A DNA stretch of 64,000 nt from a virus, in the IMG/VR virus record IMGVR_UViG_3300042465_007464, positions 32,001 to 96,000 of that record; one strand, 5' to 3'. Shown one piece after another: positions 2,491-58,692 of the stretch. Below the pieces are notes generated by a model. The model searched no databases, had not been told where the DNA came from, and saw nothing but the letters and a program-made list of their open reading frames with translations. The stretch's first letter is position 1. Every line of letters begins with the position of its first letter. The position numbers and the translations under genes were made by a program.

Positions 2491-5400
2491 TTAAGTCCAA
2501 TCGTTAGATGGTCTAAATTTGAAGATCCATATTGCGCCGGATTCAGTAGATTGATAATAACAATGTCCTAAACGACGGATATAGTTGCCACCAGGTATGT
2601 TAGTATCCATTTCACCCGAAGTGGTTCCATTTTTAATGTATACAACTAAACCGTGATCGACATTTGAAATTATAGGTCCATTTGTTCCGTTATCATCTTG
2701 TAATATATTACCTTCTAGTAATACTAAATTACTGTCTAAATAAATTCCTAACATGCGAGTTGCTAATTGTGTCGTTTGGTCTACAGCATACCACGTACCG
2801 TCATTTTCTAATGCTACTAAATTAAACTGAGCAACACTGCCATTTACACTAGCAACTTCAATTACTTCACCATCCCAGTTTGGTTTATTTATTGTGAACG
2901 ATTCTTGTGTAGTTAATGCAATAGTTTTTCTAAAAAAGTAAGGTGTTTTTATACTATAATTTAAAGATGGTGCTTCCCATTCAAATGATGCAACAGCTGT
3001 GCTATCTATTAATTGTCTATTTGTAGTGTCTAACGCGCCAGTTACGATTAAAGATCCCGTTATAATTACGCTTCCAGAGGTAGTCAATGATCCTGTTATA
3101 ATTACGCTTCCAGACCCATTTGTATTAAAGTTTGAATCGCCTCTAAAAACGCCAGCATCATTGTATTGTATATTATTAGTACTACCACCAGGAGTACCTC
3201 CACCACCTCCACCATTTAATGCATATGATGCAGTTAGTGCATATGATGCGGAAGTTACGGTTCCTACTACTCGAGATGCCGTAATAAATGAAGCTGTACT
3301 AGCAAATGAAGCTGATGTTGCAAATGATGATGTTACGGCACGAGATGATGATATGGCAAAGGATGCCGTCAATACACTACTTGTACCGGATGGTCCGAAT
3401 ACATTGGATGCTGTTATGAATGATGCAGTTAATGCAAATGATGATGTTACGGCACGAGATGCAGATACCGCATTTAAAACATACGATGCTGAAGTTGCTG
3501 TTCCAGTTAGATTACCTACAACGGTTGCTACTGTTAGAGTGTTGAATTTTGGATTATATGAAAGTGCATCACTTCCGCTATCCATATACTCTAGAGTTGT
3601 TACTGAATCAAGTGTGGAGGCAGTTGCAAATAATACGTAATACGTTGCATCAGCATCTGTATTTTTACCAATAGTCACTGCACTTGCCGTTGCTGCTACT
3701 AATGCATTATTTGCCCAACTTGCAGTTCCGTATAAACTACCTGTTATATTAGGTGCATTTAAAGAACCAGTTACGTTTTGGCTACCTGAAACGATTACCG
3801 TTCCAATTAAAGTTTGCGTATCGTTAACAGCATCGCCGAATTGATTCGAACCGGAAGAGTATATTACAGATGCAGTTTCATATGTCGTATTAAGATATGT
3901 AAATGAAGCCGTACCATTAAGGGTTAGATTACCATTAAATGTTAAATTCTGATTCAACGTATTCAAGTATGATGCTGTTAACGTAGTTATCGCAGTTTGT
4001 GCAATGTCAGCAAATGAAGCGGTACCAAACAACGATCCCGTAATACCACTTCCACTAACTAGCAATGATCCTGTAATTACCGCATCGCCAACGTATGGAA
4101 ATCCTGCTCCGCTGCCACCGCCATTCATGGCATATGATGCCGTTAAAGCGTATGAAGATGATATTGCATTTGATACATAAGATGCCGTTGTTGCGAAAGA
4201 TGCCGTACCTGATAAACTACCCGTAATTGATGATGCTAATAAAGAGCCTGTTACAGTTAAACCGTTTGTATAATTACCTGAACCTGATACATCTAACCCA
4301 TATGTTGGATCGGGTTGATTGATTCCAACAAGTGCATTTACAGAACCGCTAATAGTTTCTAATAACGTGTTTCCTGAAATTCCTAAATATAAATTTCTTG
4401 CAAAGATCACACTACCTATATTCATGCTACGCGTGGATCCACTTGGTAATGTTATGTTATTACCGATTATAATGTTACCTTGTCCTAATAAAAATCCTGA
4501 AGATAATATATCGGCATTTCTTCCTGCATTTGGTCCTATAAACGTAGATAAACTAGCAGATGGTTGTCCGTAGCCGGCACTTGAACCGATAAAGGTTGAA
4601 TTGTTTGCTAGTTTAGCATTCTGTCCGGCAGCATTCCCTATAAATGTTGAGCCTCGTAAGTTTATTGCATTGTATCCGGCATTGTAACCTATAAACGTAC
4701 CATTAGTTGTGTCAGAGTTCGGATCTAAATTACCGTTATAACCAGCTTCATAACCTATACTTACTGATAAACTTGAAGTTTTTACAAATCCACCTGCAGC
4801 ATACCCTATGTTAACAGACTGATCCGAATTCACAGACGTATATCCCGAACTATTTCCAATATATATTGAGTCACTACCTGATGTTGCGCCGCCACCAGCA
4901 TCTTGACCAATAAAAATAGATTTGGCTGCAAATTTTGCTGATACGCCGGCATTTTGTCCAATAGCTACAATAGATTCAGTTGATACATTACTAGACACTG
5001 ACAGTTCATAATATCCCGGGATAAAGCTGAACAATGAACTACCAGTAGATGCTAGTCTAGCATTTTCTACAAACGATGCGGTAGCTGCATATTGTACGTA
5101 ACTGGCAGTTTCAACAAATGATGCTGAAATTATTCGTGATGCGGTATCGACAAAACTTGCTGATACTACTCGAGATGCAGTTACTACAAAATCTGCATAC
5201 GTTACAAAACTTGAAGTAATTACGCGCGATGCAGTTTCAACAAAACTTGCTGATATTACTCGCGATGCGGTTGCAACAAAACTTGCTGATATTACTCGCG
5301 ATGCGGTTGCAACTGTGTTATTTTCTGATAAGAAGTTTACATATGATGCGGTTGCAACAAAACTTGCCGATTCTACAAAACTTGCTGTTACTACACGCGA

Positions 5401-11479: not shown

Positions 11480-13174
11480 TTAAAGAACGTTAAGACCGTG
11501 TACGTATACTTTTCCGTAGAATTCTGAACGAACAACTTTCTTCGCGTAACGTGTCATAACACCTTTACGTGGAGTGAAGTTAACTGGATCATATACTAAT
11601 GGTGTCATAATCAATGGAATGTATGGACTAAATACAGCACCCGTTTCTAGGAACTGTGCTCCACGGAATCCCATTAAGATTACGTTTTCTAACATGTATG
11701 GGTTTTTGTATACTGTGTAACGGTTATTGATTGAACCAATTTTTTGTACACCTGCCGCAAATTCCATTTTAGTTCCATCTGTGTCAGCAGCAAATCCTGG
11801 GATAGACTCAAGAATAGTTGCAACTGCTGGAGAAGTTACTAGGAAGTTAGCACCACCACGCAATGTTTTTTGGTGGATTTTGTTTGATACTTTTTGTAAT
11901 TTAGTGCCAAGTGTTTGGAACCAACCACCTTGAGTGTTGTAGTATCCATCACCTGAAGTACTAACACCACCACCTGCAGTAGCTTGAGTAAATCCTGAAC
12001 CATTCCAGAAGTTATTGTTCAATGCTGACCAATATTCAACTGTTGGTGCTGCAGCAATCAACATATCTAAGATTTCCAAATCAATTTCCATGGAAACATA
12101 CTCAGAAAGCATTGAAGTTAATTCAGCTTCAGCATCAATTGAATGGTAAGCATTTAAGTCTTGTGCGAACTCTGGAGTCCATACTGCTTTCAACTTACGT
12201 GTTTTAGCAACGATTGGTTCAGATTGCATTTCCAAGTTAATTTCTGGAATGTCAATATCAACACCGGTATTGATACCCGAATTCGCAGATGACCCTCGGA
12301 ATGGGTTAGCATCTTCAAAATCACCACGAGTGATATCAGTTGGTTGTTTGCTATAATTCAATTTGAAGTTTGTTCCTGCACTAATTGCCGTTTGAATAGC
12401 CGTTGCTTGTGCCGTTGTTACAATGAATGATGCAGTGTAATTGCTTGTAATTGTTGAGAATGCCTGAACTGGAATGATTTCGTCACCTGCAGAACCTGAA
12501 GCAAATGTCCAAGAACGAACTGCATATAAATCAGCATCAGTTGGTACATTGATAGTTACTTTTTTATAGCTTGATAATGATGCTGAATATACGCTATCAT
12601 AATTAACAAGGCCAGCATCTGTCAATGTACCAGCACCAGAACCTGTGTTAGCAGATGTGGATGTTAATGCTGCGGATGATGTGTTGTTGATTGAATAACC
12701 GAAACGACCTGCACCGTAAAGACCACCTGCTGCATCTGAACCAGTTGTAGTAACACCAAACATTGAGTCAGTTGCGTTAGGATTACCAAACGGATCACCA
12801 GTTCTGCTGTTGTTATCTGCATCAAATCCTGGTTGAGCCGTACCGTATTTAAAGTCTAAGTAAAAAATTAGACCCGATGGCAAATTCATTGGTTGAACTG
12901 ATACGAATTCTTTTGCTGCAAATTCAGCAAAGATACGACGTACCAATGGAAGAGCTACACCATTCCATTCTTCAGATCCAGCTGTTGTACCTGTTGAAGT
13001 TGCTTCTTTTACTAATTGACGTGCTTGGTTTTCAAGCAATTGCGCCATACCTGCTTTTTCAGTCTCTGTACGAAGACCTTCTAACAAACCTGTTTTCTCC
13101 CATTTATTAACGATAGCTTTTGCTGCGTTTCTTTGGTTGAAATCGTTTGTACTTAATAAATTTGAAATATCCAT
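11480..13174 (-). CDS. Major capsid protein (T4 gp23-like)
   Basis: LPLVRR, VSVQPM..PSGLIFY, AKTRKLKA.WT.E.AQDL.A.H..DAEAEL, Y.PYIPL and F.P..G.MTRYA motifs. Confidence 0.96.
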   Translation of the reverse strand: MDISNLLSTNDFNQRNAAKAIVNKWEKTGLLEGLRTETEKAGMAQLLENQARQLVKEATSTGTTAGSEEWNGVALPLVRRIFAEFAAKEFVSVQPMNLPSGLIFYLDFKYGTAQPGFDADNNSRTGDPFGNPNATDSMFGVTTTGSDAAGGLYGAGRFGYSINNTSSAALTSTSANTGSGAGTLTDAGLVNYDSVYSASLSSYKKVTINVPTDADLYAVRSWTFASGSAGDEIIPVQAFSTITSNYTASFIVTTAQATAIQTAISAGTNFKLNYSKQPTDITRGDFEDANPFRGSSANSGINTGVDIDIPEINLEMQSEPIVAKTRKLKAVWTPEFAQDLNAYHSIDAEAELTSMLSEYVSMEIDLEILDMLIAAAPTVEYWSALNNNFWNGSGFTQATAGGGVSTSGDGYYNTQGGWFQTLGTKLQKVSNKIHQKTLRGGANFLVTSPAVATILESIPGFAADTDGTKMEFAAGVQKIGSINNRYTVYKNPYMLENVILMGFRGAQFLETGAVFSPYIPLIMTPLVYDPVNFTPRKGVMTRYAKKVVRSEFYGKVYVHGLNVL

Positions 13175-14394: not shown

Positions 14395-14640
14395 TTATTT
14401 TGAGTGTTGATCTCGAACCATTTGCATGAATGCAGCTTTAATATTTTGCTGTCTGCGTTGCACACTAGGCTTAATGAATTCTCTGCGATCTTTTGTCGCT
14501 TCAAGCACTCCGGCAGATTTTACTTTGCGTTTCCATGCTTTAAGTGCATGTGCTAAATCTTCTCGTTCTGTTCCTACAACTTGTACTGCTAATGCATTAC
14601 CCGGAACAATTTGTTGATGTTGTTTTTGTTTTTTATTCAT
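14395..14640 (-). CDS. rpsU: Phage-encoded 30S ribosomal protein bS21
   Basis: V.V...EDL..ALK.WKRKV..AGVL...KDRREFIKPSV.RR...IKAAF; the C-terminus resembles Bacteroidota bS21. Confidence 0.88.
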   Translation of the reverse strand: MNKKQKQHQQIVPGNALAVQVVGTEREDLAHALKAWKRKVKSAGVLEATKDRREFIKPSVQRRQQNIKAAFMQMVRDQHSK

Positions 14641-14658: not shown

Positions 14659-15162
14659 TCAAATAGCTTCTGGTGCCGGTGCTTCTGGTTGTGGACGTTG
14701 TCCTCTTACATTGAAACGAAAATGTTTAATTTCTGGCACTTGTGCAACGTATCCTTGAATCTTTTGTGATTCGCGTCCTGGATCTTCTCCTAAACGAAAA
14801 TAGAAATATCCTACTTTACCTGATTTAGATATGTTTTGTTTAACTATAGTAAATCCTTTTCGTTCTGACCAATCTCGTATATCATTTGCAACGTTTTGTG
14901 CCATTGACGGATCTCGCAATACATATTCAACTCCTCCGCGATAATCTGCAATATGATTAACAAGTTGTGCTTCGTCTATTTCAGATTCATTAGCTGTTAT
15001 TCTAACATTACCACCGGCTTTCTTTGCAGCCACTTGTGCTGCAGTTAATGCATTTTTATCTTTTGCAACAGATGCCGCTATTTCAATATCGTTTGGATTT
15101 TGTTTAGTAGTTTGTTCTGTTATTCCGAAAAATTCTTTATATAATTTTTTTAGTGCATTCAT
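14659..15162 (-). CDS. Hypothetical protein (possible head protein)
   Basis: Likely start is MNALKKLYKEFFGITEQ; SD AAAGG. Confidence 0.6.
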   Translation of the reverse strand: MNALKKLYKEFFGITEQTTKQNPNDIEIAASVAKDKNALTAAQVAAKKAGGNVRITANESEIDEAQLVNHIADYRGGVEYVLRDPSMAQNVANDIRDWSERKGFTIVKQNISKSGKVGYFYFRLGEDPGRESQKIQGYVAQVPEIKHFRFNVRGQRPQPEAPAPEAI

Positions 15163-15204
15163 TTTATTACCTTTAATATAAATAAAAAGATTCAAACATC
15201 CAAA

Positions 15205-15576
15205 TTAATTAACATCGAAGTATTTGTTTAATCCTTGTGCGATATCTTCATATGCTGCACTTAAACGTTGTTGCAACATAGCCATTTCTTTTGCAGTTGC
15301 TTCAAATACTTTGTATGAATCGTTTAGATTTTTCATGTGACGTTTAACTGTTACACTATCAAACCAATCGCCTTTTTCCGTTGCAATTTGTTCTGCTTTG
15401 TTAATGATGTCACGTACATGATCGGTTAATTGATCTAAATCACCTTTTCCATATACCGAATCACTCATTTCAGAAAAACGTTTAACGCGTTCAACGAATG
15501 CAGCTTTTTCTTCTTTAGACAATGGTTTTGGTTGTTCGTCTAACAACGTTTCTAGTATGTATTTTAAATTTCTCAT
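15205..15576 (-). CDS. Hypothetical head-module protein
   Basis: Likely start is MRNLKYILETLLDE; helical. Confidence 0.6.
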   Translation of the reverse strand: MRNLKYILETLLDEQPKPLSKEEKAAFVERVKRFSEMSDSVYGKGDLDQLTDHVRDIINKAEQIATEKGDWFDSVTVKRHMKNLNDSYKVFEATAKEMAMLQQRLSAAYEDIAQGLNKYFDVN

Positions 15577-15578
15577 CT

Positions 15579-16211
15579 TTAAATTATTCTGCATTTACCG
15601 TCTTCGCATAAAATTGAAGTAATAAGTTCATTTACACGTGCGTATTTGTTTGTTTTAACTGTTTTATCTACTGACTCGTGCATGTGCGTAGGCCGCATAA
15701 AAGCCCCATGCGTTGAAGGATTTGATACAAAGTCCCAACATATCAATTCAAAGTCTTCTTGAACTTCAACCGTACCCTCACTGCGTAATTCTTTTACGGA
15801 ACCTAATCCACGGGATGAAATGCCTAATGTGATACCAGCTTTAAAAAGTTCTTTAAGAATTTTTCCTGACGGAGTTTCTAGTATTTGTACTGCTCCTTTT
15901 AAATCATCACCATCCCACCATATTTTTAGTACATTATGAGATACGTTGTTCAAGTTTACTACGGAAGATTCTGGATGATCCAATTCTCCTAGTGCACGAT
16001 GCTGTTGTATGAATTCTTGTTCATATCGTCTACATTCGCGTTCTAGTATGTTTCTTGGATAGATTCTACCATTTTGATTTTTTGCTCCCGCACGTTGTAA
16101 AACTCCTTGAACTACAAAACCACCAGGTATCCCATATGCAGCCCCACTCGATTCAGTAAGTGAACCAATCGGACGAAATGGCATATATTCTACTATTAGT
16201 TGTTTTGACAT
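15579..16211 (-). CDS. Prohead protease (T4 gp21-like)
   Basis: KNQNGRIYP, ALGELDHP, VSH, GISSRGLGS and DFVSNPS motifs. Confidence 0.95.
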   Translation of the reverse strand: MSKQLIVEYMPFRPIGSLTESSGAAYGIPGGFVVQGVLQRAGAKNQNGRIYPRNILERECRRYEQEFIQQHRALGELDHPESSVVNLNNVSHNVLKIWWDGDDLKGAVQILETPSGKILKELFKAGITLGISSRGLGSVKELRSEGTVEVQEDFELICWDFVSNPSTHGAFMRPTHMHESVDKTVKTNKYARVNELITSILCEDGKCRII

Positions 16212-17840: not shown

Positions 17841-19682
17841 TTACAAAATATTGTTTTCATCTAAAATAGTACCAGCGTCTTTATCAGATTCCGTTGGTAT
17901 TGCTGTTTTTAAAGATTCTGTTATTATGGATGCACCTTTATTTTTTATTTTTAAATGTTTCAATATGTTGTTATGTTCTACGGCAACTGTTGCGTTGTTT
18001 TTAAACTTCGGATCTGGCTGAAATGCTGTTTTTTGATTTTCTGGATTAAATGTTTGCTTAATAGTTTTAATACCCGTTGGATCCCATCCAAATTCATTTT
18101 GATGTTGTCCTGATTTAATTCCTTCTGGTGGACGGCCTCCTAAATCTTTTTCTTCAACGTCATCGCTGGACATGTGCATTGATGCTAAATCATGAGGTGT
18201 TCCAAATGAAACTCCCGTTATAGCAGGATCATTTCCTTCTTGTTCAATCTGATTTTGACGGAAACGAAGTTTAAGATCTTCAATAACATCAACACGTTCT
18301 TGAAGCCATTGTTCTTCGGACATATTGAATATAAACTCATAAATGTAACGATCTGAAACAAGTTTTAAATCTTTCATTGTATTTGCTAATTGAACTTTTT
18401 CATTCATTAAAGCAACTTTTTGTTGATCGTATATAATTGATGGTGCTGTTAATTCTAGTTCAAATCCAATTAAATCTTCGCCTTCAAATCCTTGTGAATA
18501 TAAATGCACTATTCCAATTTTAATAAGTTCCGATGTTACGATTTTTTGAATACGTTCGATAGTTCTGGCAAAACGAATATCCATGGATGCTAACGTAGTT
18601 TTACCTTCAACTGACTCGCTATATCCTAAAAATGGTTTAGGAATTTTAAGTGCAGCCATCATTTTATCTTTTACATATTCAATATCATCCATTCCGGTAA
18701 ATGTCATACCTGGTAATGTATCAATTGTAGTAGAAGACTGACCCCCGCGTACTGGCAAATAATAATCTTCTAACATGTTGTTAAGATTGAATCTCATGTT
18801 GTAATTTCCAGTTTGCGGATCGATGTGTGGAATTTTTTTCATTTTATTGATAATCTGTTCCATGAAATTATCAACTTCATTTGGTGGAATATTACCAATA
18901 TCAATTTTAAAGATTCGTTTTTCTGGTGCACGCATTATACGATGAATAAGCATTGCATCTTCTAACATCATTAATTTTTGAAATTCTTTACGTGCTCCTT
19001 CTAACATAGATCTACCGTACGGTAAAAAGTTTGAATCCGACAACATACGGAAATGTGCTATTTCAAACACATCATATGTCATTTGTTCTGACGCAATATT
19101 TTTAAATTTAATATCATATTCACCCGTCGCTTCATTATATTCTTCCCAACGTTCCATTTCATAACTAGAAAATGGACGTGCATTAACTACTCCGTAAGTG
19201 TCTGCGATATCTAATTTCAAAAAGAAATCACCGTATTTGGTCATGTTGCGTATCCACGTCCACAAATTGAATTCAATGTTCAATACATCATAAAACAAGT
19301 TATAAAGTATTTTTTGAATTTGCGTGTTATTAGTTTTGATTGTAAGTATATCTCCGAATTGATCTGCTAATGTAGATTCATCTGAATAAATATCTAAGGC
19401 AGAAGATATGATTGGATCTTTATCCATCATTTCGTAGTCAGCATATAACTGCATACGATTTTGGTGCATATAATAATTAGAATCATATCCACCCATACCA
19501 CCGACACGGTGTTTGTTTGCACCATGCAGTCGAGTATATCGATCTGCAATTTTACTTTGTGCTAAATTACCAGAACCTTGTAGACGATTTGTATCTACTA
19601 CACGTACCTGATCTTTCCCATATGCCCGAACAATTACGTTGGTGCTAAATAGGTTCTGTAAACGTTTTCTTAATGACGCCAT
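17841..19682 (-). CDS. Portal protein (T4 gp20-like)
   Basis: LEDAMLIHRIMRAPEKRIFKIDIGN, EDYYLP.RGG...T.IDTLPG, ALKIP. Confidence 0.95.
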   Translation of the reverse strand: MASLRKRLQNLFSTNVIVRAYGKDQVRVVDTNRLQGSGNLAQSKIADRYTRLHGANKHRVGGMGGYDSNYYMHQNRMQLYADYEMMDKDPIISSALDIYSDESTLADQFGDILTIKTNNTQIQKILYNLFYDVLNIEFNLWTWIRNMTKYGDFFLKLDIADTYGVVNARPFSSYEMERWEEYNEATGEYDIKFKNIASEQMTYDVFEIAHFRMLSDSNFLPYGRSMLEGARKEFQKLMMLEDAMLIHRIMRAPEKRIFKIDIGNIPPNEVDNFMEQIINKMKKIPHIDPQTGNYNMRFNLNNMLEDYYLPVRGGQSSTTIDTLPGMTFTGMDDIEYVKDKMMAALKIPKPFLGYSESVEGKTTLASMDIRFARTIERIQKIVTSELIKIGIVHLYSQGFEGEDLIGFELELTAPSIIYDQQKVALMNEKVQLANTMKDLKLVSDRYIYEFIFNMSEEQWLQERVDVIEDLKLRFRQNQIEQEGNDPAITGVSFGTPHDLASMHMSSDDVEEKDLGGRPPEGIKSGQHQNEFGWDPTGIKTIKQTFNPENQKTAFQPDPKFKNNATVAVEHNNILKHLKIKNKGASIITESLKTAIPTESDKDAGTILDENNIL

Positions 19683-19724: not shown

Positions 19725-21305
19725 TTATTTTATCAACCAAGTTAATGATTCATCGCCTGACCCAGGATTCCAATTCCATCCATTGTCGCTGTTATTACGA
19801 TTGCCAGTATAAATAACTGGACTCGTTTTTTGAAAAGAAGATAGTGCACGTTTATTCAAATCAATACCTTGTTGACGTAATTTTAGTGCAGTATCGCGTA
19901 ACCATAATCCGATACAAAATGACATTACTAAGTCATCGTTATATCCTTGTTGTGCTTGTGCTTTACCATTAAGCCAAACAAACACTAGTAATTCTTGTAT
20001 TAAACGTCGGCTACGAATAAACGGAGTACGATCTCGCATATACATTTCAAGTGCCGATATCATTAATGGACGTGTACGTGTTGTGGTTGATACTCCCGGA
20101 ACCATTTGGCTCTTATCTTTCATATCATAACCTTTTTTCAATTGTACATCGGCATCTGTATATCCGTCATCTTTATATGTATAATGTAAGTTTTGATAGT
20201 TTCTATCAAGTGCCGGCTGAATTGCGGCCCAACCAATGTTTGCATTTTCAATAGCTAATAACGCATTGTTCCATTCCGTTGCAACCGTTACTAACATGTT
20301 TCCAAATTCATTGGGTGGAATCTTTCCTTTAAATTCTGCTACTTGTCGTACCGTTTCAACTTCTAAAACATGAAATGCAGACCAGTCACCACCATCACCC
20401 CGTGCGACGTCAGCTACTACCATGTAATCACGTGCATAGTCCGGATATTCCCAAATCCAATACGCTCCATCAAATCCACGCTTTTCAATTGGTTCTTCAC
20501 ATTTACCTTCATATTCTAAAAGCAAAGGACCATCTACTACAGTATGTCCCGATGATACGAAGTCACAGTCACATTCTTGTGCCGCACCGCGTTCGCCTAA
20601 TAACGATGTTTGTTCATTACGCCACGTTTGGTCGCGTTCTGGGTGCACATCCCAACGCAAACGAATTGTATGGAAACCGTTAATGTCCGCTTCCGCGTCT
20701 GCCCAAGTTTGGTGAAACCAGTTACCAACACCGTTCGGCGTAGATAATACAATAGCACCACCACCCGTTGATAGGGTTGCTTGCGACGCTATCCATATTT
20801 CTTCAATGTTTCGAATAAATGCAGCCTCATCAATGATTAGCAGAGACAACGCTTCTGAACGTGCTCCTGTGGTTGCTGATGAAACGGCTTTGATTTGCGA
20901 ACCATTTTTAAATTTAAGTGATAATTTGTTATCAGCTTCAACCGTACCTTTCAACCAACTTGGCAAGTTATCGTGCATCACCCGTACTTTCGTTACTAGG
21001 TTTTTTGCTACTTCTTGTGTGGTTGCAATAACTAACACGTTGAAATCTTCTTTGAACAACATGCACCAAAGTGCAAAGCCGGCAGATAGAGTTGATATAC
21101 CTAACTGCCGAGACTTTAATATTACATTGTATCGATTATCGCGAAGCTGTGTTAATGAATCTTCTTGGAATGGAAACAAATTAAATTTGATCTTACCACG
21201 TTTAGGATGTTGTATGTAACAATAATTACGCATAAAAAATACAGGATCTTTAGCACATTGCATGTACTGTTGTTGTATTATCTGCTTAATATTTTGTTGT
21301 GCCAT
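19725..21305 (-). CDS. Terminase large subunit (gp17-like)
   Basis: KSRQLGIST Walker A, IIDEAAF Walker B, STPNG, DVARGDG.D, DDLVM. Confidence 0.96.
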   Translation of the reverse strand: MAQQNIKQIIQQQYMQCAKDPVFFMRNYCYIQHPKRGKIKFNLFPFQEDSLTQLRDNRYNVILKSRQLGISTLSAGFALWCMLFKEDFNVLVIATTQEVAKNLVTKVRVMHDNLPSWLKGTVEADNKLSLKFKNGSQIKAVSSATTGARSEALSLLIIDEAAFIRNIEEIWIASQATLSTGGGAIVLSTPNGVGNWFHQTWADAEADINGFHTIRLRWDVHPERDQTWRNEQTSLLGERGAAQECDCDFVSSGHTVVDGPLLLEYEGKCEEPIEKRGFDGAYWIWEYPDYARDYMVVADVARGDGGDWSAFHVLEVETVRQVAEFKGKIPPNEFGNMLVTVATEWNNALLAIENANIGWAAIQPALDRNYQNLHYTYKDDGYTDADVQLKKGYDMKDKSQMVPGVSTTTRTRPLMISALEMYMRDRTPFIRSRRLIQELLVFVWLNGKAQAQQGYNDDLVMSFCIGLWLRDTALKLRQQGIDLNKRALSSFQKTSPVIYTGNRNNSDNGWNWNPGSGDESLTWLIK

Positions 21306-23494: not shown

Positions 23495-24076
23495 TTAAAC
23501 AGATTTAACCGATTTTTTATTTAATAACGCTTTTGAAATATTTTCAGAATGTTTTGCAGTTCGCGGTGGTTTCTTTTTATTTTTAAGTGACTTACTAATA
23601 TTAAGTTTATGTTCATCACTCATTGGCCCACGACTTAAACCAGATTTACCTTTATTCCATGGAATGCGCCCCTTTCCAGCTTTAGAAATTTTTTCTCGAG
23701 TTTCTATAGAATATTTAACGGTTTTTCCTTTATTTTGTTTACCTAATTGTTGTACAATCATTTGTTGCAGTTGTTTACAACGACTATATTCTTTCGAACT
23801 AATGATATAATTTCGTTCATGTTTTGAACTTTGATGATTCATCATTCTCCATAGTGCATAATGCAATTTTGTTTCGTTAAGATAAATTTCACAAAGAAGT
23901 TTATGTGCTATGAAATGTTCTCGAGCTGTAAGTAATACTAAATTAGTTTTATTATTTCGTCCATTTAAACATTTAGGAACGATATGATGTCGTTCGAAAT
24001 ATATGCCGCGACCTTTTTTACGATTCTCAGATTGACATCGCGCTATTAATTGTTCGTATATTTTTTTATAATTCAT
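23495..24076 (-). mobile_element. Free-standing HNH homing endonuclease with NUMOD3 DNA-binding repeats
   Basis: ERHHIVPKCLNG.N...NLVLLTAREHFIAH.LL; S.ETREKIS...KG..PWNKG; SDEHK.NIS. Confidence 0.88.
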
Positions 24077-31991: not shown

Positions 31992-32018
31992 CCACAGATA
32001 TTCTTTTTATATAAATAT

Positions 32019-36775: not shown

Positions 36776-37336
36776 TTATTTTATTTTGTATATAATGTAT
36801 TGTCTGTCTGTTCCTTTGTATGTTGCAATAGCACCAGTTGAATCTAATTCAAATTCATCTGCTTTTACATACACTTCTGGATGTAATGCTAAATGTCTAG
36901 GATTTTCAATTTTCAAATAACTACCATCTTCCGAACGACCTAATACTGCAACTTCCGGATGTCTTCGTGCATTAACGAGATCAAGCATTTTTTTTATTTT
37001 TGCATTATCGTAATCAATTTTAAATATGTCTGGTTGTTTTTTTGTATTTATATCTGAATCTACTTTAACAACAGTTCCTTCAGCTTTATTTCTAGCATCA
37101 ACATATGTTTGTATTACATTGATAGCTTTATCATAATTCTCCGGAGACAATGCTATTTTCATGTTTTTCCAAGATCCTGATCCTTTTTTTCGTGTAAACC
37201 AAGCTCCATTTTTTTGTACGTATTGCCATGGATCATTTCCAGGATTAATTTGAGTTCCATTTGATGCCGGATCTGTAGTTGAAAATGGTTTAGTTGTATC
37301 AAATGCTTCAAATAGCAAATTTTTTAATTTAATCAT
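36776..37336 (-). CDS. Putative internal head protein (MIKLKNLLFE leader)
   Basis: Leader shared with the two upstream genes; SD AAAGGA. Confidence 0.6.
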   Translation of the reverse strand: MIKLKNLLFEAFDTTKPFSTTDPASNGTQINPGNDPWQYVQKNGAWFTRKKGSGSWKNMKIALSPENYDKAINVIQTYVDARNKAEGTVVKVDSDINTKKQPDIFKIDYDNAKIKKMLDLVNARRHPEVAVLGRSEDGSYLKIENPRHLALHPEVYVKADEFELDSTGAIATYKGTDRQYIIYKIK

Positions 37337-37348
37337 GATATCCTTTTA

Positions 37349-38068
37349 TTACGCTACGTCGATATACGATGTAGGAATCCATCCTTTAACTTTACCACCA
37401 ACGTAAACTACAGAACATTCAAACTTAGCAGTTACATTAGAATCTCTATCTATTGTGTAACTCATTAAAACATAAACATCGCCAACACGTTGTCCTGATA
37501 TTGTTGCAGGTTTAAATGTACTTTGATCTGCGTCAGTTGGCCAACCTCTTTCATTAAATTCTGATAAATCATACTGACGCCAATCTTCATTAAAAACTGG
37601 AACGTATTTATCTGGATAACGAACTTTAATTGTTTTACCAACTAACTGTTGTTTTAATTCATTTTTAGCTGCGATAACCGCATCGTCAAATAATTTACGC
37701 CAATTTGTAGTATATGATTTTGCAGATAATTTTTGTATTTCGATTTTCGGAGACATCCAACCATTTTTATTTCTACGTACTGCTAACGGTTGTATGTTGT
37801 TATCCGTATTATTGTTATCTGTATTATCGGTATTTGCTTGTTGTTTCCGCGCCTGTGCTGCTTTTGGAAACTTTTTATCTAGTTTATCTATAGAAGATTT
37901 CCAAGCTGGATTAGTAGATATATTAAATTCTTTTCCTGTTTGTCTATTTTTTGACCACCATTCTCCATTTTTAATAGCATAAATATATGGATCTTTATCG
38001 TCATAGTTATAAACGTAACCTTTGTATAGCGTGGCTTGTTCCGTTAATATGCGTTTCAATTTTATCAC
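37349..38068 (-). CDS. Putative internal head protein (MIKLKRILTE leader)
   Basis: GTG start with SD; late motif at 38084-38091. Confidence 0.6.
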   Translation of the reverse strand: MIKLKRILTEQATLYKGYVYNYDDKDPYIYAIKNGEWWSKNRQTGKEFNISTNPAWKSSIDKLDKKFPKAAQARKQQANTDNTDNNNTDNNIQPLAVRRNKNGWMSPKIEIQKLSAKSYTTNWRKLFDDAVIAAKNELKQQLVGKTIKVRYPDKYVPVFNEDWRQYDLSEFNERGWPTDADQSTFKPATISGQRVGDVYVLMSYTIDRDSNVTAKFECSVVYVGGKVKGWIPTSYIDVA

Positions 38069-38090
38069 AGCATTTCCTTTTTAATAAATA

Positions 38091-38633
38091 TCACCAATCA
38101 ACTAAAACTAATTTTCCATTCCAGGTCATGATGTTATCGGATTTGAAATCTAAATCCAAATCCAAATCTTCAATTCCTAAACGACGTACATCAGTTTGCA
38201 ATGCACGTAAAAATGTAACTAGTTGCGGATCTGTGTTACGTGCACCGTCGGCATCTAAATAATCGAAGATGCTAGCATCTCCACCTGACGAACGTGCATA
38301 TTGTTTGTATCGTTCGTGAAATGAATCTATTTTTTGTTTAACAACATCTGGCAATGTTTCTGCATTTGCCATTATGTACATGTTTTTATCATTAGTATAA
38401 TATACAGGAATGAATGTAGATATCAATGATGTTTTGCCTATGAGTTCTTGTGCAACTTCGAATTCAGCTGGTTCTGTAGTAATCTTAAAAACTTTGTCTT
38501 CGCCGTTGATTTCATATACTTTACCATTATCACCTGCGGCAACGAAACTATATTCTTTGTTACGAATTTTATCTAAACAACGCTTAATGTCTGTATCTTC
38601 CATTTCGCGAAGTAATTGTTTTAATCGTATCAT
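38091..38633 (-). CDS. Minimal protein-kinase-like protein with MIRLKQLLRE leader
   Basis: AAGDNGKVY Gly loop, VFK lysine, alphaC Glu, DFKSDN catalytic loop, LVDW at the extreme C-terminus. Confidence 0.75.
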   Translation of the reverse strand: MIRLKQLLREMEDTDIKRCLDKIRNKEYSFVAAGDNGKVYEINGEDKVFKITTEPAEFEVAQELIGKTSLISTFIPVYYTNDKNMYIMANAETLPDVVKQKIDSFHERYKQYARSSGGDASIFDYLDADGARNTDPQLVTFLRALQTDVRRLGIEDLDLDLDFKSDNIMTWNGKLVLVDW

Positions 38634-56129: not shown

Positions 56130-56229
56130 AGACTTTTTTTATAATATAAGAAATAAAATGCAATAATCCTAATTTCGGCGATTTTTAATGCGTATATATT
56201 TATATGAAAGAAACCTTTAAGGATATGCA

Positions 56230-56910
56230 ATGAAAATTAATTTAGCAGAAAATTTGCTTCGTTTTGGAGTAAAAAATTTATCGGAATCTGATTACGAAAA
56301 AATACAAGAACAAACTGCTGCAAAAATATCCATAGCACCAATTAATGTATCGCGTAAGTTTGGAACAAGTGCAACCCCAGTCGTTATTAATGATTTGGAA
56401 GGATATTTAGGCGTACGAACAGATAAAGGTGCTGAATATTGGTTTCCATCTGGAAAAGTAGTTACATGTATTGGCAGTAATGATATATTTAATTTATTAA
56501 TAGGTCCTGCAGGTGTTATTAATGATACTGTATATACACCAAAGTATGAATTATTAGTAATGGTTATTGCCTTAGGGAATGCTGTAAATTCTATGAAACA
56601 AGCAATAGCAAATAATACTGCAACGGGAACAAAACAAGCAGAGGTATCAACTATGAAAGCTAGATCGATAGCAACTTTCGATTTAACGAAAAAAATGAAT
56701 AATACGCCTTACGTAGCAGCATTTATTTTAAAACTATTACAAATTGATATGGAACTAAGACAATCGGTAGATAAAGTATTACTACCAAAAGTTGTTGATA
56801 TCATCAATCTTTTAAATCAAATAGGCGTATATTCAAATACAATTAATATTGATACGGACAAACAAACAATTGACAATTTTTTTATAAAAATGGGTGGAAA
56901 ATTAGTTTAA
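56230..56910 (+). CDS. Cassette protein A1 (MKINLAENLLRF leader), function unknown
   Basis: One of only two convincing plus-strand genes; late motif 56196-56203 and SD AAGGA. Confidence 0.85.
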   Translation: MKINLAENLLRFGVKNLSESDYEKIQEQTAAKISIAPINVSRKFGTSATPVVINDLEGYLGVRTDKGAEYWFPSGKVVTCIGSNDIFNLLIGPAGVINDTVYTPKYELLVMVIALGNAVNSMKQAIANNTATGTKQAEVSTMKARSIATFDLTKKMNNTPYVAAFILKLLQIDMELRQSVDKVLLPKVVDIINLLNQIGVYSNTINIDTDKQTIDNFFIKMGGKLV

Positions 56911-56923
56911 TCACCCACCCATT
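56889..56923. terminator. Hairpin between convergent A1 and B1
   Basis: aatgggtgg (56889-56897) / ccacccatt (56915-56923). Confidence 0.55.
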
Positions 56924-57263
56924 AATGTGTAGAATTAAAATAATATTGTTCAAGTTTATTTTCCTTGAATGCATTATTAATATCAGTTAATCCGGTAATA
57001 AATCCCATTTCGGAATCTTCTGAATATATTTCAATAATTACATCAGAAACAAACGTTGTAGTATCATTCCAAACTATACTTTTAATAACATATCCATTTA
57101 CAGAATATTTTGCTTTAATGATATCAAAAAATTGAGCAACGTGAATATAATCGCTATTTAACGGAACTACGATACCTAAATCATTTGAATTATATGATTC
57201 GCGATCTTGACTAAATACAATACCACTAACTAAAACTGCTACGATTACAATTAACTTTTTCAT
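56922..57263 (-). CDS. Cassette protein B1, secreted (signal peptide, mature Gln start)
   Basis: MKKLIVIVAVLVSGIVFS/Q; host-type promoter upstream. Confidence 0.85.
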   Translation of the reverse strand: MKKLIVIVAVLVSGIVFSQDRESYNSNDLGIVVPLNSDYIHVAQFFDIIKAKYSVNGYVIKSIVWNDTTTFVSDVIIEIYSEDSEMGFITGLTDINNAFKENKLEQYYFNSTH

Positions 57264-57288
57264 CTCTCTTTATTTAATTGGTTTCTAT

Positions 57289-57323
57289 ATTATAAAAATA
57301 AGGAAAAAATCAGTACGATCCAA
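57289..57323 (-). promoter_or_regulatory. Putative host-sigma (early) promoter TTG-N20-TAnnTT (example)
   Basis: Same architecture upstream of genes starting at 2451, 15162, 36100, 54709, 56129, 58601 and 61046; matches Bacteroidota -33/-7 spacing. Confidence 0.7.
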
Positions 57324-57389
57324 CCTTTTTACTAACTTTAATGAAAGTTTTTTTATTGATATTTATATGAAAGAAACCATAAAGGATAC

Positions 57390-58016
57390 ATGATGAAAAT
57401 TAATTTAGCAGAAAATTTGCTTCGTTTTGCACCAAAAAACTTGGATGCTAAAACTATCGAAAAAATACAAGAATTGGCAGAACAAACTGCAACTACATCT
57501 AACATACCGGCTAACGTAGCACAAATTCCAAATTGGAAAACTGTAGCCACGTGGTTTAAAACAAATGCACACGATAAAGGAATTAAAACTGCCGCTTTAG
57601 CATATGGAGATTTTTTATATCAAGCTGAACCAGCTGGTCAAGATTTTCGTTTATCCGTTTATCAAGCACAACAATGCCAATATGGCACATTCCCATTTAT
57701 AGCATTACAACGTTATGCAGATTTAAGTACCGATGGAATGGGAAATATTAAAGATGCAGAAACAACGCCAATGCAAGCACTAGTTAGTTTGCAAAATGTA
57801 TCCAATCAAGTAAGTGCCGGTATACAAGAAGTTAATGATAATTGGAATAATAGTATACCACAAACAAATACAGCCGTTGCACGACAACATATAAAATTAA
57901 GAAAACCTGCATTACAAAACACGATTAATGTTATAAAACAACAATCGAATTTAGCTGAAATAGGTAGCAAATTAACAGGTACTGCTAAAGGTGCATACGA
58001 AGAAATAATTTCATAA
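57390..58016 (+). CDS. Cassette protein A2 (MKINLAENLLRF leader), function unknown
   Basis: Late motif 57359-57366; SD AAAGGA; leader near-identical to A1. Confidence 0.85.
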   Translation: MMKINLAENLLRFAPKNLDAKTIEKIQELAEQTATTSNIPANVAQIPNWKTVATWFKTNAHDKGIKTAALAYGDFLYQAEPAGQDFRLSVYQAQQCQYGTFPFIALQRYADLSTDGMGNIKDAETTPMQALVSLQNVSNQVSAGIQEVNDNWNNSIPQTNTAVARQHIKLRKPALQNTINVIKQQSNLAEIGSKLTGTAKGAYEEIIS

Positions 58017-58037
58017 TATTATTGTATAAACAGTATG

Positions 58038-58068
58038 AATGGGGTAGCTAAAAACTACCCCATTTTTT
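58038..58068 (+). terminator. Terminator between convergent A2 and B2
   Basis: AATGGGGTAG-ctaaaaa-CTACCCCATT-TTTTT. Confidence 0.85.
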
Positions 58069-58601
58069 TATTTATTAGTTAATAATTCTGTAACTCCTTC
58101 GAAATTTGTAAAAAATATAATCGATCCAAATCCACCTTTACCTCGTGCAATGTATACTTCTAAAATATCAATTGATTTTACATTTGATTTTTTATCATTA
58201 ACTTCGATATGTGCAAAGTTTACGATTTTTTCATGTTTCGTACTAACAGCTCCAAAAGCAAATGCCGTCGCATCTTCTAAAACTTTATCGGAAAAATAAG
58301 TTTCGAAACTTAATACTTGATTGGTATCGGGTAACGTTTTAAATCTATATGGAGCCCAATTAACAAATTTTGCATATTCGCTTCTAAGTTCTTTAGAGAT
58401 ATCTGAGTTAGGACCTGCAGGTAAACTATCAACATAACCCGATTCAACTAAATATCTATCATGCGAACCTATATAAAATATGTCATATCGATTCAAAAAA
58501 TCAATTTGTGAAAAAAAGATAGCTTCATATCTTTGATCAATGTTCTGTGCATTAACAATGCCACTAACTAAAACTGCTACGATTACAATTAACTTTTTCA
58601 T
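58068..58601 (-). CDS. Cassette protein B2, secreted (signal peptide, mature Gln start)
   Basis: MKKLIVIVAVLVSGIVNA/Q; 5' region near-identical to B1. Confidence 0.85.
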   Translation of the reverse strand: MKKLIVIVAVLVSGIVNAQNIDQRYEAIFFSQIDFLNRYDIFYIGSHDRYLVESGYVDSLPAGPNSDISKELRSEYAKFVNWAPYRFKTLPDTNQVLSFETYFSDKVLEDATAFAFGAVSTKHEKIVNFAHIEVNDKKSNVKSIDILEVYIARGKGGFGSIIFFTNFEGVTELLTNK

Positions 58602-58692
58602 CTCTCTTTATTTAATTGGTTTCTTATATTATAAAAATAAGGAAAAAACCAATACAATCCAACCGAATCATAAAAAAAGTTTCGAAAAAGTT

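Follow-up and report, generated by a model that had tools for sequence, protein, structure and literature searches.

Convergent A and B genes with constant ends and variable cores at a hypervariable locus of a phage with a T4-type head

Introduction

Why would a virus that encodes nearly everything on one strand keep, in tandem on the other, two genes that each face a small gene for a secreted protein, with almost the same DNA at the outer ends of both pairs and dissimilar protein cores in between? The question is raised by a 64,000-nucleotide stretch of viral DNA (the window), positions 32,001 to 96,000 of the IMG/VR virus record IMGVR_UViG_3300042465_007464, in which we call the two plus-strand genes A1 and A2 and their convergent minus-strand neighbours B1 and B2. 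A preliminary description of this DNA had proposed that A is packaged, processed and delivered on infection, and that B is an early periplasmic partner conferring either immunity to A or superinfection exclusion keyed to A. The cassettes turn out to form a hypervariable accessory locus in a phage with a T4-type head. In the reading that we put forward, A is a capsid-targeted, processed cargo and B a co-inherited early periplasmic partner acting on the same A; taken as a whole we hold this combined reading tentatively, at slightly below an even chance.

Results

Two convergent cassettes with constant ends

All four open reading frames (ORFs) were found as previously described, and the two-fold convergent arrangement is real. 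A1 (226 aa; 56230-56910, plus strand) faces B1 (113 aa; 56922-57263, minus strand), and A2 (207 aa; 57393-58016, plus strand, with an additional Met at 57390) faces B2 (177 aa; 58068-58601, minus strand), giving the order A1 -> <- B1, A2 -> <- B2. The minus strand carries nearly all genes, both in the window and in its 109.6-kb record (35.6% G+C). An ORF survey bore out that A1 and A2 are the sole convincing plus-strand genes of the window, being its only plus-strand ORFs of at least 100 aa without overlap.

The two cassettes resemble each other at their ends. An 84-nt direct repeat of 88% identity covers the DNA upstream of A together with the leader and first codons, and includes at the A start a stretch of 36 identical nucleotides that occurs twice in the window against zero expected occurrences. 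A second direct repeat (D1; 93 nt, 87% identity ungapped, the copies being essentially one 1-nt indel apart) covers the B promoter and signal peptide. At the protein level, the alignment of A1 with A2 is confined to residues 1-45 (60% identity) and that of B1 with B2 to residues 1-20 (85% identity). These alignments agree with the earlier picture of constant upstream DNA and leader in A, constant promoter and signal peptide in B, and variable cores. Each pair was also said to meet at a hairpin, and both junctions proved stable, with z from -3.3 to -5.1. The A1/B1 hairpin (56889-56923; inverted repeat I9) overlaps both stop codons, with folding energies of -15.8 kcal/mol (z = -3.3) on one strand and -16.9 kcal/mol (z = -3.7) on the other; for the A2/B2 hairpin (58037-58065), which looks like a terminator on either strand, the corresponding energies are -18.8 kcal/mol (z = -4.6) and -19.2 kcal/mol (z = -5.1).

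A perfect 18-nt inverted repeat, TTTTTATAATATAAGAAA, has its arms at window positions 56136-56153 and 58620-58637. One arm coincides with the B2 promoter's -10 region, and the other lies at the start of uvdE; read on the uvdE strand as TTTCTTATATTATAAAAA, it resembles the early -10 region conserved 5' of uvdE in related loci.

Promoter classes of A and B

Comparison of promoters within the genome supports late transcription of A and early transcription of B, the split that had been proposed. A late-class motif, ATATTTAT, precedes A1 at 56196-56203 (plus strand), 26 nt 5' of the start codon, and A2 at 57359-57366 (plus strand), followed in both cases by an AAGGA Shine-Dalgarno sequence. This is the motif of the structural genes: among the 41 copies on the coding (minus) strand of the genome, 24 sit 14-28 nt 5' of a start codon, and the genes so preceded include the portal gene and further structural genes. 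Six copies occur on the plus strand, and two of these are the ones preceding A1 and A2. In related loci, ATATTTAT was found at most 70 nt upstream of 36 of 41 A genes, and the five exceptions lie directly 3' of another plus-strand gene.

The B genes have the promoter of the early block. B1 is preceded by an early-class promoter and 5' untranslated region (57264-57325, minus strand), TTGGAT-N17-TATTTTTA..TATA and then AAAGAGAG before the ATG, and B2 by a near-identical element (58602-58665, minus strand; direct repeat D1). The common form, TTGGAT-N17-TTAT.TT with an AAGAGAG leader, is as in the early gene block at the genome's right end (100-108 kb), where about 12 small genes show a matching architecture (TTGACA, 17 nt, TA..TTTA, ..AAGAGAGAT-ATG). 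An early-type promoter is kept upstream of B genes across related loci.

The A leader and the head module

The A1 leader consists of residues 1-27, with LAE at residues 5-7, LSE at 17-19 and IQE at 25-27, and is followed by Q. That of A2 runs over approximately residues 1-30, with LAE at 5-7, IQE at 25-27 and LAE at 28-30, followed by QT. Searches with A1 and A2 returned full-length relatives as well as proteins that match only in their first 25-40 residues. At E <= 1e-3 a profile built on the leader matched 1,122 representative proteins (50%-identity clusters), 194 of them at E <= 1e-10, almost always over residues 1-35, and the top 138 of these leader proteins fell into 78 unrelated core clusters.

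Three parts can be told apart in the leader: a segment ..LK.ILAE, similar to the capsid-targeting sequence (CTS) of T4; an invariant ENxxRFGxKNL(S)E module; and a spacer ending in L-x-E. We aligned 52 leaders, anchored on the invariant ENxxRF, and scored the motif [LIM]-x-E. It is present immediately before the anchor in 51 of the 52 sequences (site 1), at KNL(S)E in 36 (site 2) and 17-23 residues past the anchor in 47 (site 3), against a chance frequency of 0.037 in the equivalent window of A cores. The distal L-x-E coincides with the end of conservation, and low-complexity or variable sequence starts there. In a set of 137 independent representatives the distal site was found in 136, the next residue being Q in 70 and A in 39.

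A leader of about 30 aa is indeed shared by A1 and A2, as noted before, but it is not exclusive to them. Three other genes of this genome, all on the minus strand, carry the full leader (ENMxRFGTKNL), at genome positions 3650-4198 (L023), 20229-20684 (L024) and 98518-98892 (L022); their leaders stop at NL.E|S, without the distal L-x-E. Approximately ten further genes carry a related short leader of 10 residues, MI[KR]LKxLLxE, in which residue 8 is L and residue 10 is E, like those of the T4 CTS; several of these genes stand behind the late motif. Short-leader genes lie at window positions 36776-38633 (three genes, minus strand), from 63163 to past the window end (minus strand) and at genome positions 97998-100084 (L022). 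Longer variants of the leader start, MI[KR]LKNILAE, share the L8 and E10 of the short leader.

The head of this phage is of the T4 type. A Gp23-family capsid protein is encoded at 11480-13174 of the window (minus strand; Pfam E = 7.7e-75) and a Gp20-type portal (Portal_T4) at 17841-19682 (E = 1.4e-64), and the module also includes a large terminase. Between the capsid and portal genes, at 15579-16211 (minus strand), lies the gene for a prohead protease of the Peptidase_S77 / T4 gp21 family (PF03420, Pfam E = 8.9e-32; PHROG head maturation protease, E = 7.9e-54), presumed to be the enzyme that processes the leaders. Peptidase_S77 is found in three of five related contigs, namely the three longest, and the two contigs without it are short fragments. 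In T4, gp21 cleaves after L/I-X-E, and the CTS are propeptides of 10-19 residues, processed at residues 8 and 10 (PMC9026906), that target internal proteins into the prohead core (PMC9026906, PMC3012670). Small proteins whose genes adjoin the protease gene of our phage also start in a leader-like style, and carry ITE|QT and LDE|QP.

The S77 protease, the positions of the L-x-E sites, the variants with L8 and E10, the likeness to head-module proteins and the basic cores described below together lead us to regard the leader as probably a capsid-targeting propeptide and A as virion cargo processed by the protease. The earlier claim that A is packaged and processed thus has in its favour the presence of the protease and an L-x-E at the leader end; packaging and cleavage themselves are what we infer from them.

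Several side observations concern the head module. The Gp23-family protein is 564 aa long and its main Pfam match starts at residue 214, which implies a long N-terminal region or an insertion; LLE|G at residue 32 and LLE|N at residue 48 are candidate cleavage sites of the protein. At 14659-15594 (minus strand), adjoining the protease gene, two small proteins have N-termini like the short leader (..NLKYILE.. and ..LKKLYKEFFGITE|QT) and may be internal or core proteins of the phage. The head module also encodes a basic protein of 81 aa at 14395-14640 (minus strand).

Outside the phages recovered here the leader is scarce. Among 185,579 bacterial and archaeal species genomes it gave only three weak matches, which argues that this is no bacterial or prophage system. 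Flavobacterium phage immuto, the closest cultured relative by capsid protein (56.5% identity), gave no leader match in a search that recovered, as a control, all five copies in the genome to which the window belongs. The literature searched for leader strings returned nothing.

Cores of the A proteins

The A1 core is basic (pI 9.1), and the full-length relatives of A1 share 65-72% identity with it. Basic cores are common, pI exceeding 8 in 80% of A cores versus 28% of the proteome. Neither Pfam nor PHROG offered a family for A1, A2, B1 or B2, and a Pfam scan of 179 A proteins (41 + 138) yielded only LysM (three), Lcl_C (one) and Fib_succ_major (one). Within the top 138 leader proteins, four have any Pfam domain (LysM in two, Lcl_C, Fib_succ_major). 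One short-leader protein, of 360 aa (L022:1163-2245; the gene that runs from 63163 past the window end), combines a GDSL esterase with Phage_lysozyme2 (phage tail lysozyme) and is probably a virion-borne cell-wall enzyme. Judging by the domains of this protein and of the three LysM cores, some leader-tagged cargo is directed at the cell wall, that is, the periplasm.

For A2, AlphaFold2 gave a model with a mean pLDDT of 84, the core exceeding 90 and the leader, predicted as helical, at 49-60. No significant match was obtained for it in the PDB (best Foldseek E = 0.2; best VIA-align Z = 4.4) or in BFVD, where the top entry is an uncharacterised protein of an uncultured phage (E = 1.4e-3). The A2 core is best described as a confident predicted fold without a known relative. 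Likenesses of A2 to pilins and tail fibres fell below noise and were not used. Elsewhere, two tandem plus-strand A genes (L018:8738-11128) have cores that are 58% identical and look like a recent in-place duplication sharing one B.

The B proteins

B1 has a Sec signal peptide with a predicted signal peptidase I cleavage at VFS|QD, thus with Gln at +1, and an acidic mature part (pI 4.4). The Sec signal peptide of B2 has its predicted cleavage at VNA|QN, and the mature part is again acidic (pI 5.2). Q stands at +1 in at least 90% of B signal peptides, which are predicted to have no lipobox; a Q-rule for signal peptidase I substrates has been described in Bacteroidota (PMC5837995). Since the B signal peptides obey this rule and the capsid protein is immuto-like, the host is probably a Flavobacteriia-type bacterium.

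The B1 orthologue in L001 (80% identity) stands with an A1 orthologue. B2 has six homologues at 48-81% identity, and a more distant relative (34%) is paired with an A2 relative (24%) in L025. The ESM Atlas gave no lead for B2. A CAP domain was found in 7 and DUF2927 in 3 of 29 B proteins. The Sec signal bears out that B is secreted, as had been proposed; the suggestion that it is an immunity protein fared worse, CAP and DUF2927 proteins not being typical of that role.

These data bear on a classical polymorphic toxin/immunity arrangement, in which A would be a toxin delivered on infection and B would protect the cell that produces it. The constant N-terminus, the variable C-terminus and a small neighbour that co-varies recall the loci of contact-dependent growth inhibition (CDI) and Rhs systems. 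No Pfam toxin domain was found in any of the 179 A proteins, however, and the A2 fold has no known relative. B is convergent with A, stands behind an early promoter of its own and carries a Sec signal, and CAP and DUF2927 proteins are among the B proteins; the leader is nearly absent from bacterial species genomes (the three weak matches above); and a lytic phage would gain little by shielding a doomed cell from its own late protein. A may hold an unrecognised toxin fold. Because toxin domains are lacking and because B is exported, oppositely oriented and separately promoted, we consider this explanation very improbable.

In another alternative, A is a receptor-binding protein (RBP), a variable adhesin docked by its conserved N-terminus on the exterior of the virion, at the tail or head, and B acts early from the periplasm to mask or alter the matching receptor, as in the pb5/Llp pair of T5. 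A late structural gene adjoining an early secreted exclusion gene is T5-like, and the pairs there are cognate (PMC9586334). The recognisable A domains (LysM, Lcl_C, Fib_succ_major) bind glycans, the weak likenesses of the A2 core include tail-fibre tips (all at Z < 5), and hypervariability is typical of RBPs. Yet the locus adjoins uvdE, distant from the tail genes; the L-x-E triplet and the S77 protease point to removal of the leader; and a leader of the same kind occurs on small head-module proteins. The A cores are also small, basic and often placed after low-complexity linkers, and B, having no lipobox, is a predicted substrate of signal peptidase I. We judge this alternative improbable, if less so than a toxin.

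The locus in related phages and the pairing of A with B

The same syntenic locus was found in 22 viral contigs, 21 recovered by A alignment and one via B2. It starts with two small genes and uvdE, continues with one to at least three A-> <-B units and ends with a conserved pair of genes for proteins of 188 and 144 aa. Minus-strand genes between A runs encode signal-peptide proteins and have an early-type promoter, and those plus-strand genes of the locus that lack the full leader start with short L-x-E leaders.

Whether A and B cores stay together as fixed pairs, in cassettes of varying number, was a check suggested in the preliminary description. The convergent pair does recur, and the number of units varies as given above. 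Across loci there are 18 pairs of homologous B proteins; the convergent A proteins were also homologous in 9 of the 18 by BLAST, and in 10 of the 18 after a direct pairwise check of L005 versus L011 (E = 1e-7), against a background of A homology of 13/512 (Fisher p approximately 1e-9 to 1e-10). The divergent neighbour beyond B was homologous in 0 of 8 cases. A-B pairs reappear in altered cassette order and with other neighbours, and they hold at deep divergence (23-39% identity for A, 23-74% for B).

Such co-travel might also arise from linkage without function. A would then be a virion accessory, for example an anti-defence protein like T4 IPI, and B an independent early secreted moron that alters the envelope; their alternation would stem from the needs of terminators and promoters, and their joint inheritance from recombination confined to the cassette ends. 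The conserved ends do bracket precisely the block of A core plus B core. Several kinds of protein stand as B (CAP, DUF2927 and members of no family), tandems of A with A exist, and the differing order of the same families in L004 and L014 fits as well. Against this explanation, pairs survive deep divergence while the adjoining cassettes change, all minus-strand genes between A runs are signal-peptide proteins with early promoters, which transcription architecture alone does not demand, and the A cores are basic whereas B is acidic to neutral. We regard linkage without function as somewhat unlikely.

A number of points weigh against the combined reading itself, some of them shared with the linkage explanation. 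Recombination confined to the ends would by itself pass on A and B as a block, with or without a functional link, and for this reason the pairing is no proof of function. Leader genes without a convergent B, which the preliminary description would have counted against pairing if they were the usual case, do occur: the three other full-leader genes of this genome have no adjacent B, and some A runs that adjoin uvdE or the conserved genes lack one (in L014, and next to uvdE in L006 and L008). Another exception is that L004 and L014 share their A and B families but arrange them differently. In L008 a DUF2927-type B stands beside an unrelated A, so one B family is found with unrelated A cores. CAP and DUF2927 families are, to our knowledge, not known as inhibitors, and the predicted structure of B2 (mean pLDDT 43) was unusable. 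On the side of A, the leader exceeds the T4 CTS both in length (27-33 residues) and in constraint (an invariant RFGxKN), and could be a docking peptide for another site of the virion. The cultured-phage collection gave no match for the locus DNA, the A1 protein or the leader alone. Finally, the recognisable A domains are glycan-binding or adhesin-like and would fit an exposed protein equally well. That B is functionally matched to A is, in our estimate, possible, with the balance leaning against it.

Similarity of the cassette ends was compared within and between genomes. It was 0.73 versus 0.68 for B, a weak difference, and 0.72 versus 0.73 for A, that is, none. Concerted evolution of the ends within genomes was thus weak for B and absent for A, and since these values barely differ, the near-identical ends of this window are not general.

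In two related contigs uvdE and the first A cassette are separated by a gene for an HNH-type endonuclease (..ERHHIVPKC..; L010:9188-9835 and L019:9182-9829), and a similar gene is found at 23495-24076 of the window. Such an enzyme, if a homing endonuclease bordering the cassettes, could favour exchange at this locus. In L006 and L008, uvdE stands inside the cassette array (A-> uvdE<- B<-) and is thus shifted relative to the cassettes.

Discussion

Under the combined reading, in which packaging, cleavage, ejection and any A-B interaction are inferred from sequence, the leader would direct A into the prohead core and the S77 (gp21-type) protease would remove it at L-x-E. The basic mature core would stay with the DNA in the head and be ejected at the next infection, like the internal proteins of T-even phages. 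B, given its host-type early promoter and its Q-rule Sec signal, would be expected in the periplasm soon after infection. In the envelope it would most likely act in a manner matched to its A, for instance by neutralising or sensing same-type A from a superinfecting phage, comparable to T4 Spackle. Recombination at the conserved ends, the promoter and leader of A and the promoter and signal peptide of B, would shift the A core and the B core as a block.

One extension of this mechanism is that A and B form a polymorphic phage-versus-phage recognition system, with periplasmic B specific for the ejected A of the same type. An infected cell would then detect or block superinfection by phages with matching cargo, through exclusion or a lysis-timing signal, and a swap of cassettes would alter which competitors are recognised. 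We consider this extension unlikely.

That hypervariable internal proteins can share one conserved targeting leader is already established for T-even phages. The novelty lies first in the leader family, which is large, matched no Pfam or PHROG family when its proteins were scanned and did not come up in the literature searched. Also new are that the leader has three parts, that Bacteroidota-type phages carry it and that it is systematically paired with an early secreted protein. The leader profile offers a sequence handle on the probable packaged and ejected proteome of many uncultured T4-type Bacteroidota phages: more than 1,100 non-redundant leader proteins were recovered, almost all without a known domain. 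The equivalent proteins of T-even phages are anti-defence factors. If the leader is a capsid-targeting tag, it might be used for loading foreign proteins into these phages. For the pairing with an early secreted protein we found no counterpart in the literature on T-even internal proteins; if functional, it would give phages interchangeable modules for telling self from non-self or for controlling superinfection.

Comparison with known systems

The A proteins are most readily compared with IPI, IPII and IPIII of T-even phages. Both come from phages that have a T4-type head and a protease of the gp21 family, both are products of late-class genes present in several copies per genome, and in both a short conserved N-terminal propeptide ending in L/I-x-E precedes basic mature parts that are otherwise unrelated; T-even internal proteins are very diverse, the CTS alone being conserved (PMC3012670, PMC9026906). 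The A leaders differ from the T4 CTS in length (27-33 aa) and in their three-part build, with three L-x-E sites and an invariant ENxxRFGxKNL whose RFGxKN has no counterpart in T4, and their sequences do not resemble the CTS. The A genes of this window, unlike T-even ip genes, lie on the strand opposite to the rest of the genome. Each of them also faces a convergent gene for an early secreted protein, and we know of no such partner for T-even ip genes.

CDI and Rhs systems share with the cassettes a constant targeting end, a variable payload and linkage to a partner gene, and they too form tandem arrays that vary in number. Here, in contrast, no toxin domain was found in the A proteins scanned, B is exported, convergent and separately expressed early, and the A-B pairs are confined to phage genomes. 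In toxin/immunity systems the immunity gene lies directly downstream and is co-transcribed, which is not so for B.

The model proposed for B acting on A is closest to T4 Spackle (gp61.3), an early periplasmic protein that binds and inhibits the virion lysozyme gp5 of a superinfecting phage (PMC7677548). The Spackle gene and gene 5, however, are non-adjacent and form no polymorphic cassettes. The target of Spackle is a virion cell-wall hydrolase, whereas A1 and A2 have no lysozyme or hydrolase domain in Pfam, and the leader-tagged lysozyme/esterase gene of this genome (63163 to past the window end) has no adjacent B.

The pb5/Llp pair of T5 and related siphophage pairs of RBP and superinfection exclusion genes consist of adjacent late virion and early secreted exclusion genes that are cognate and exchangeable (PMC9586334). 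Llp is a lipoprotein, whereas B lacks a lipobox and is predicted to be cut by signal peptidase I; pb5 is encoded in the tail module and, unlike A, has no cleavable L-x-E leader. In gene arrangement the A-B pairs are nonetheless like pb5/Llp, with a late gene beside an early secreted gene and with pairs that are exchangeable as units (10/18 against a background of 13/512).

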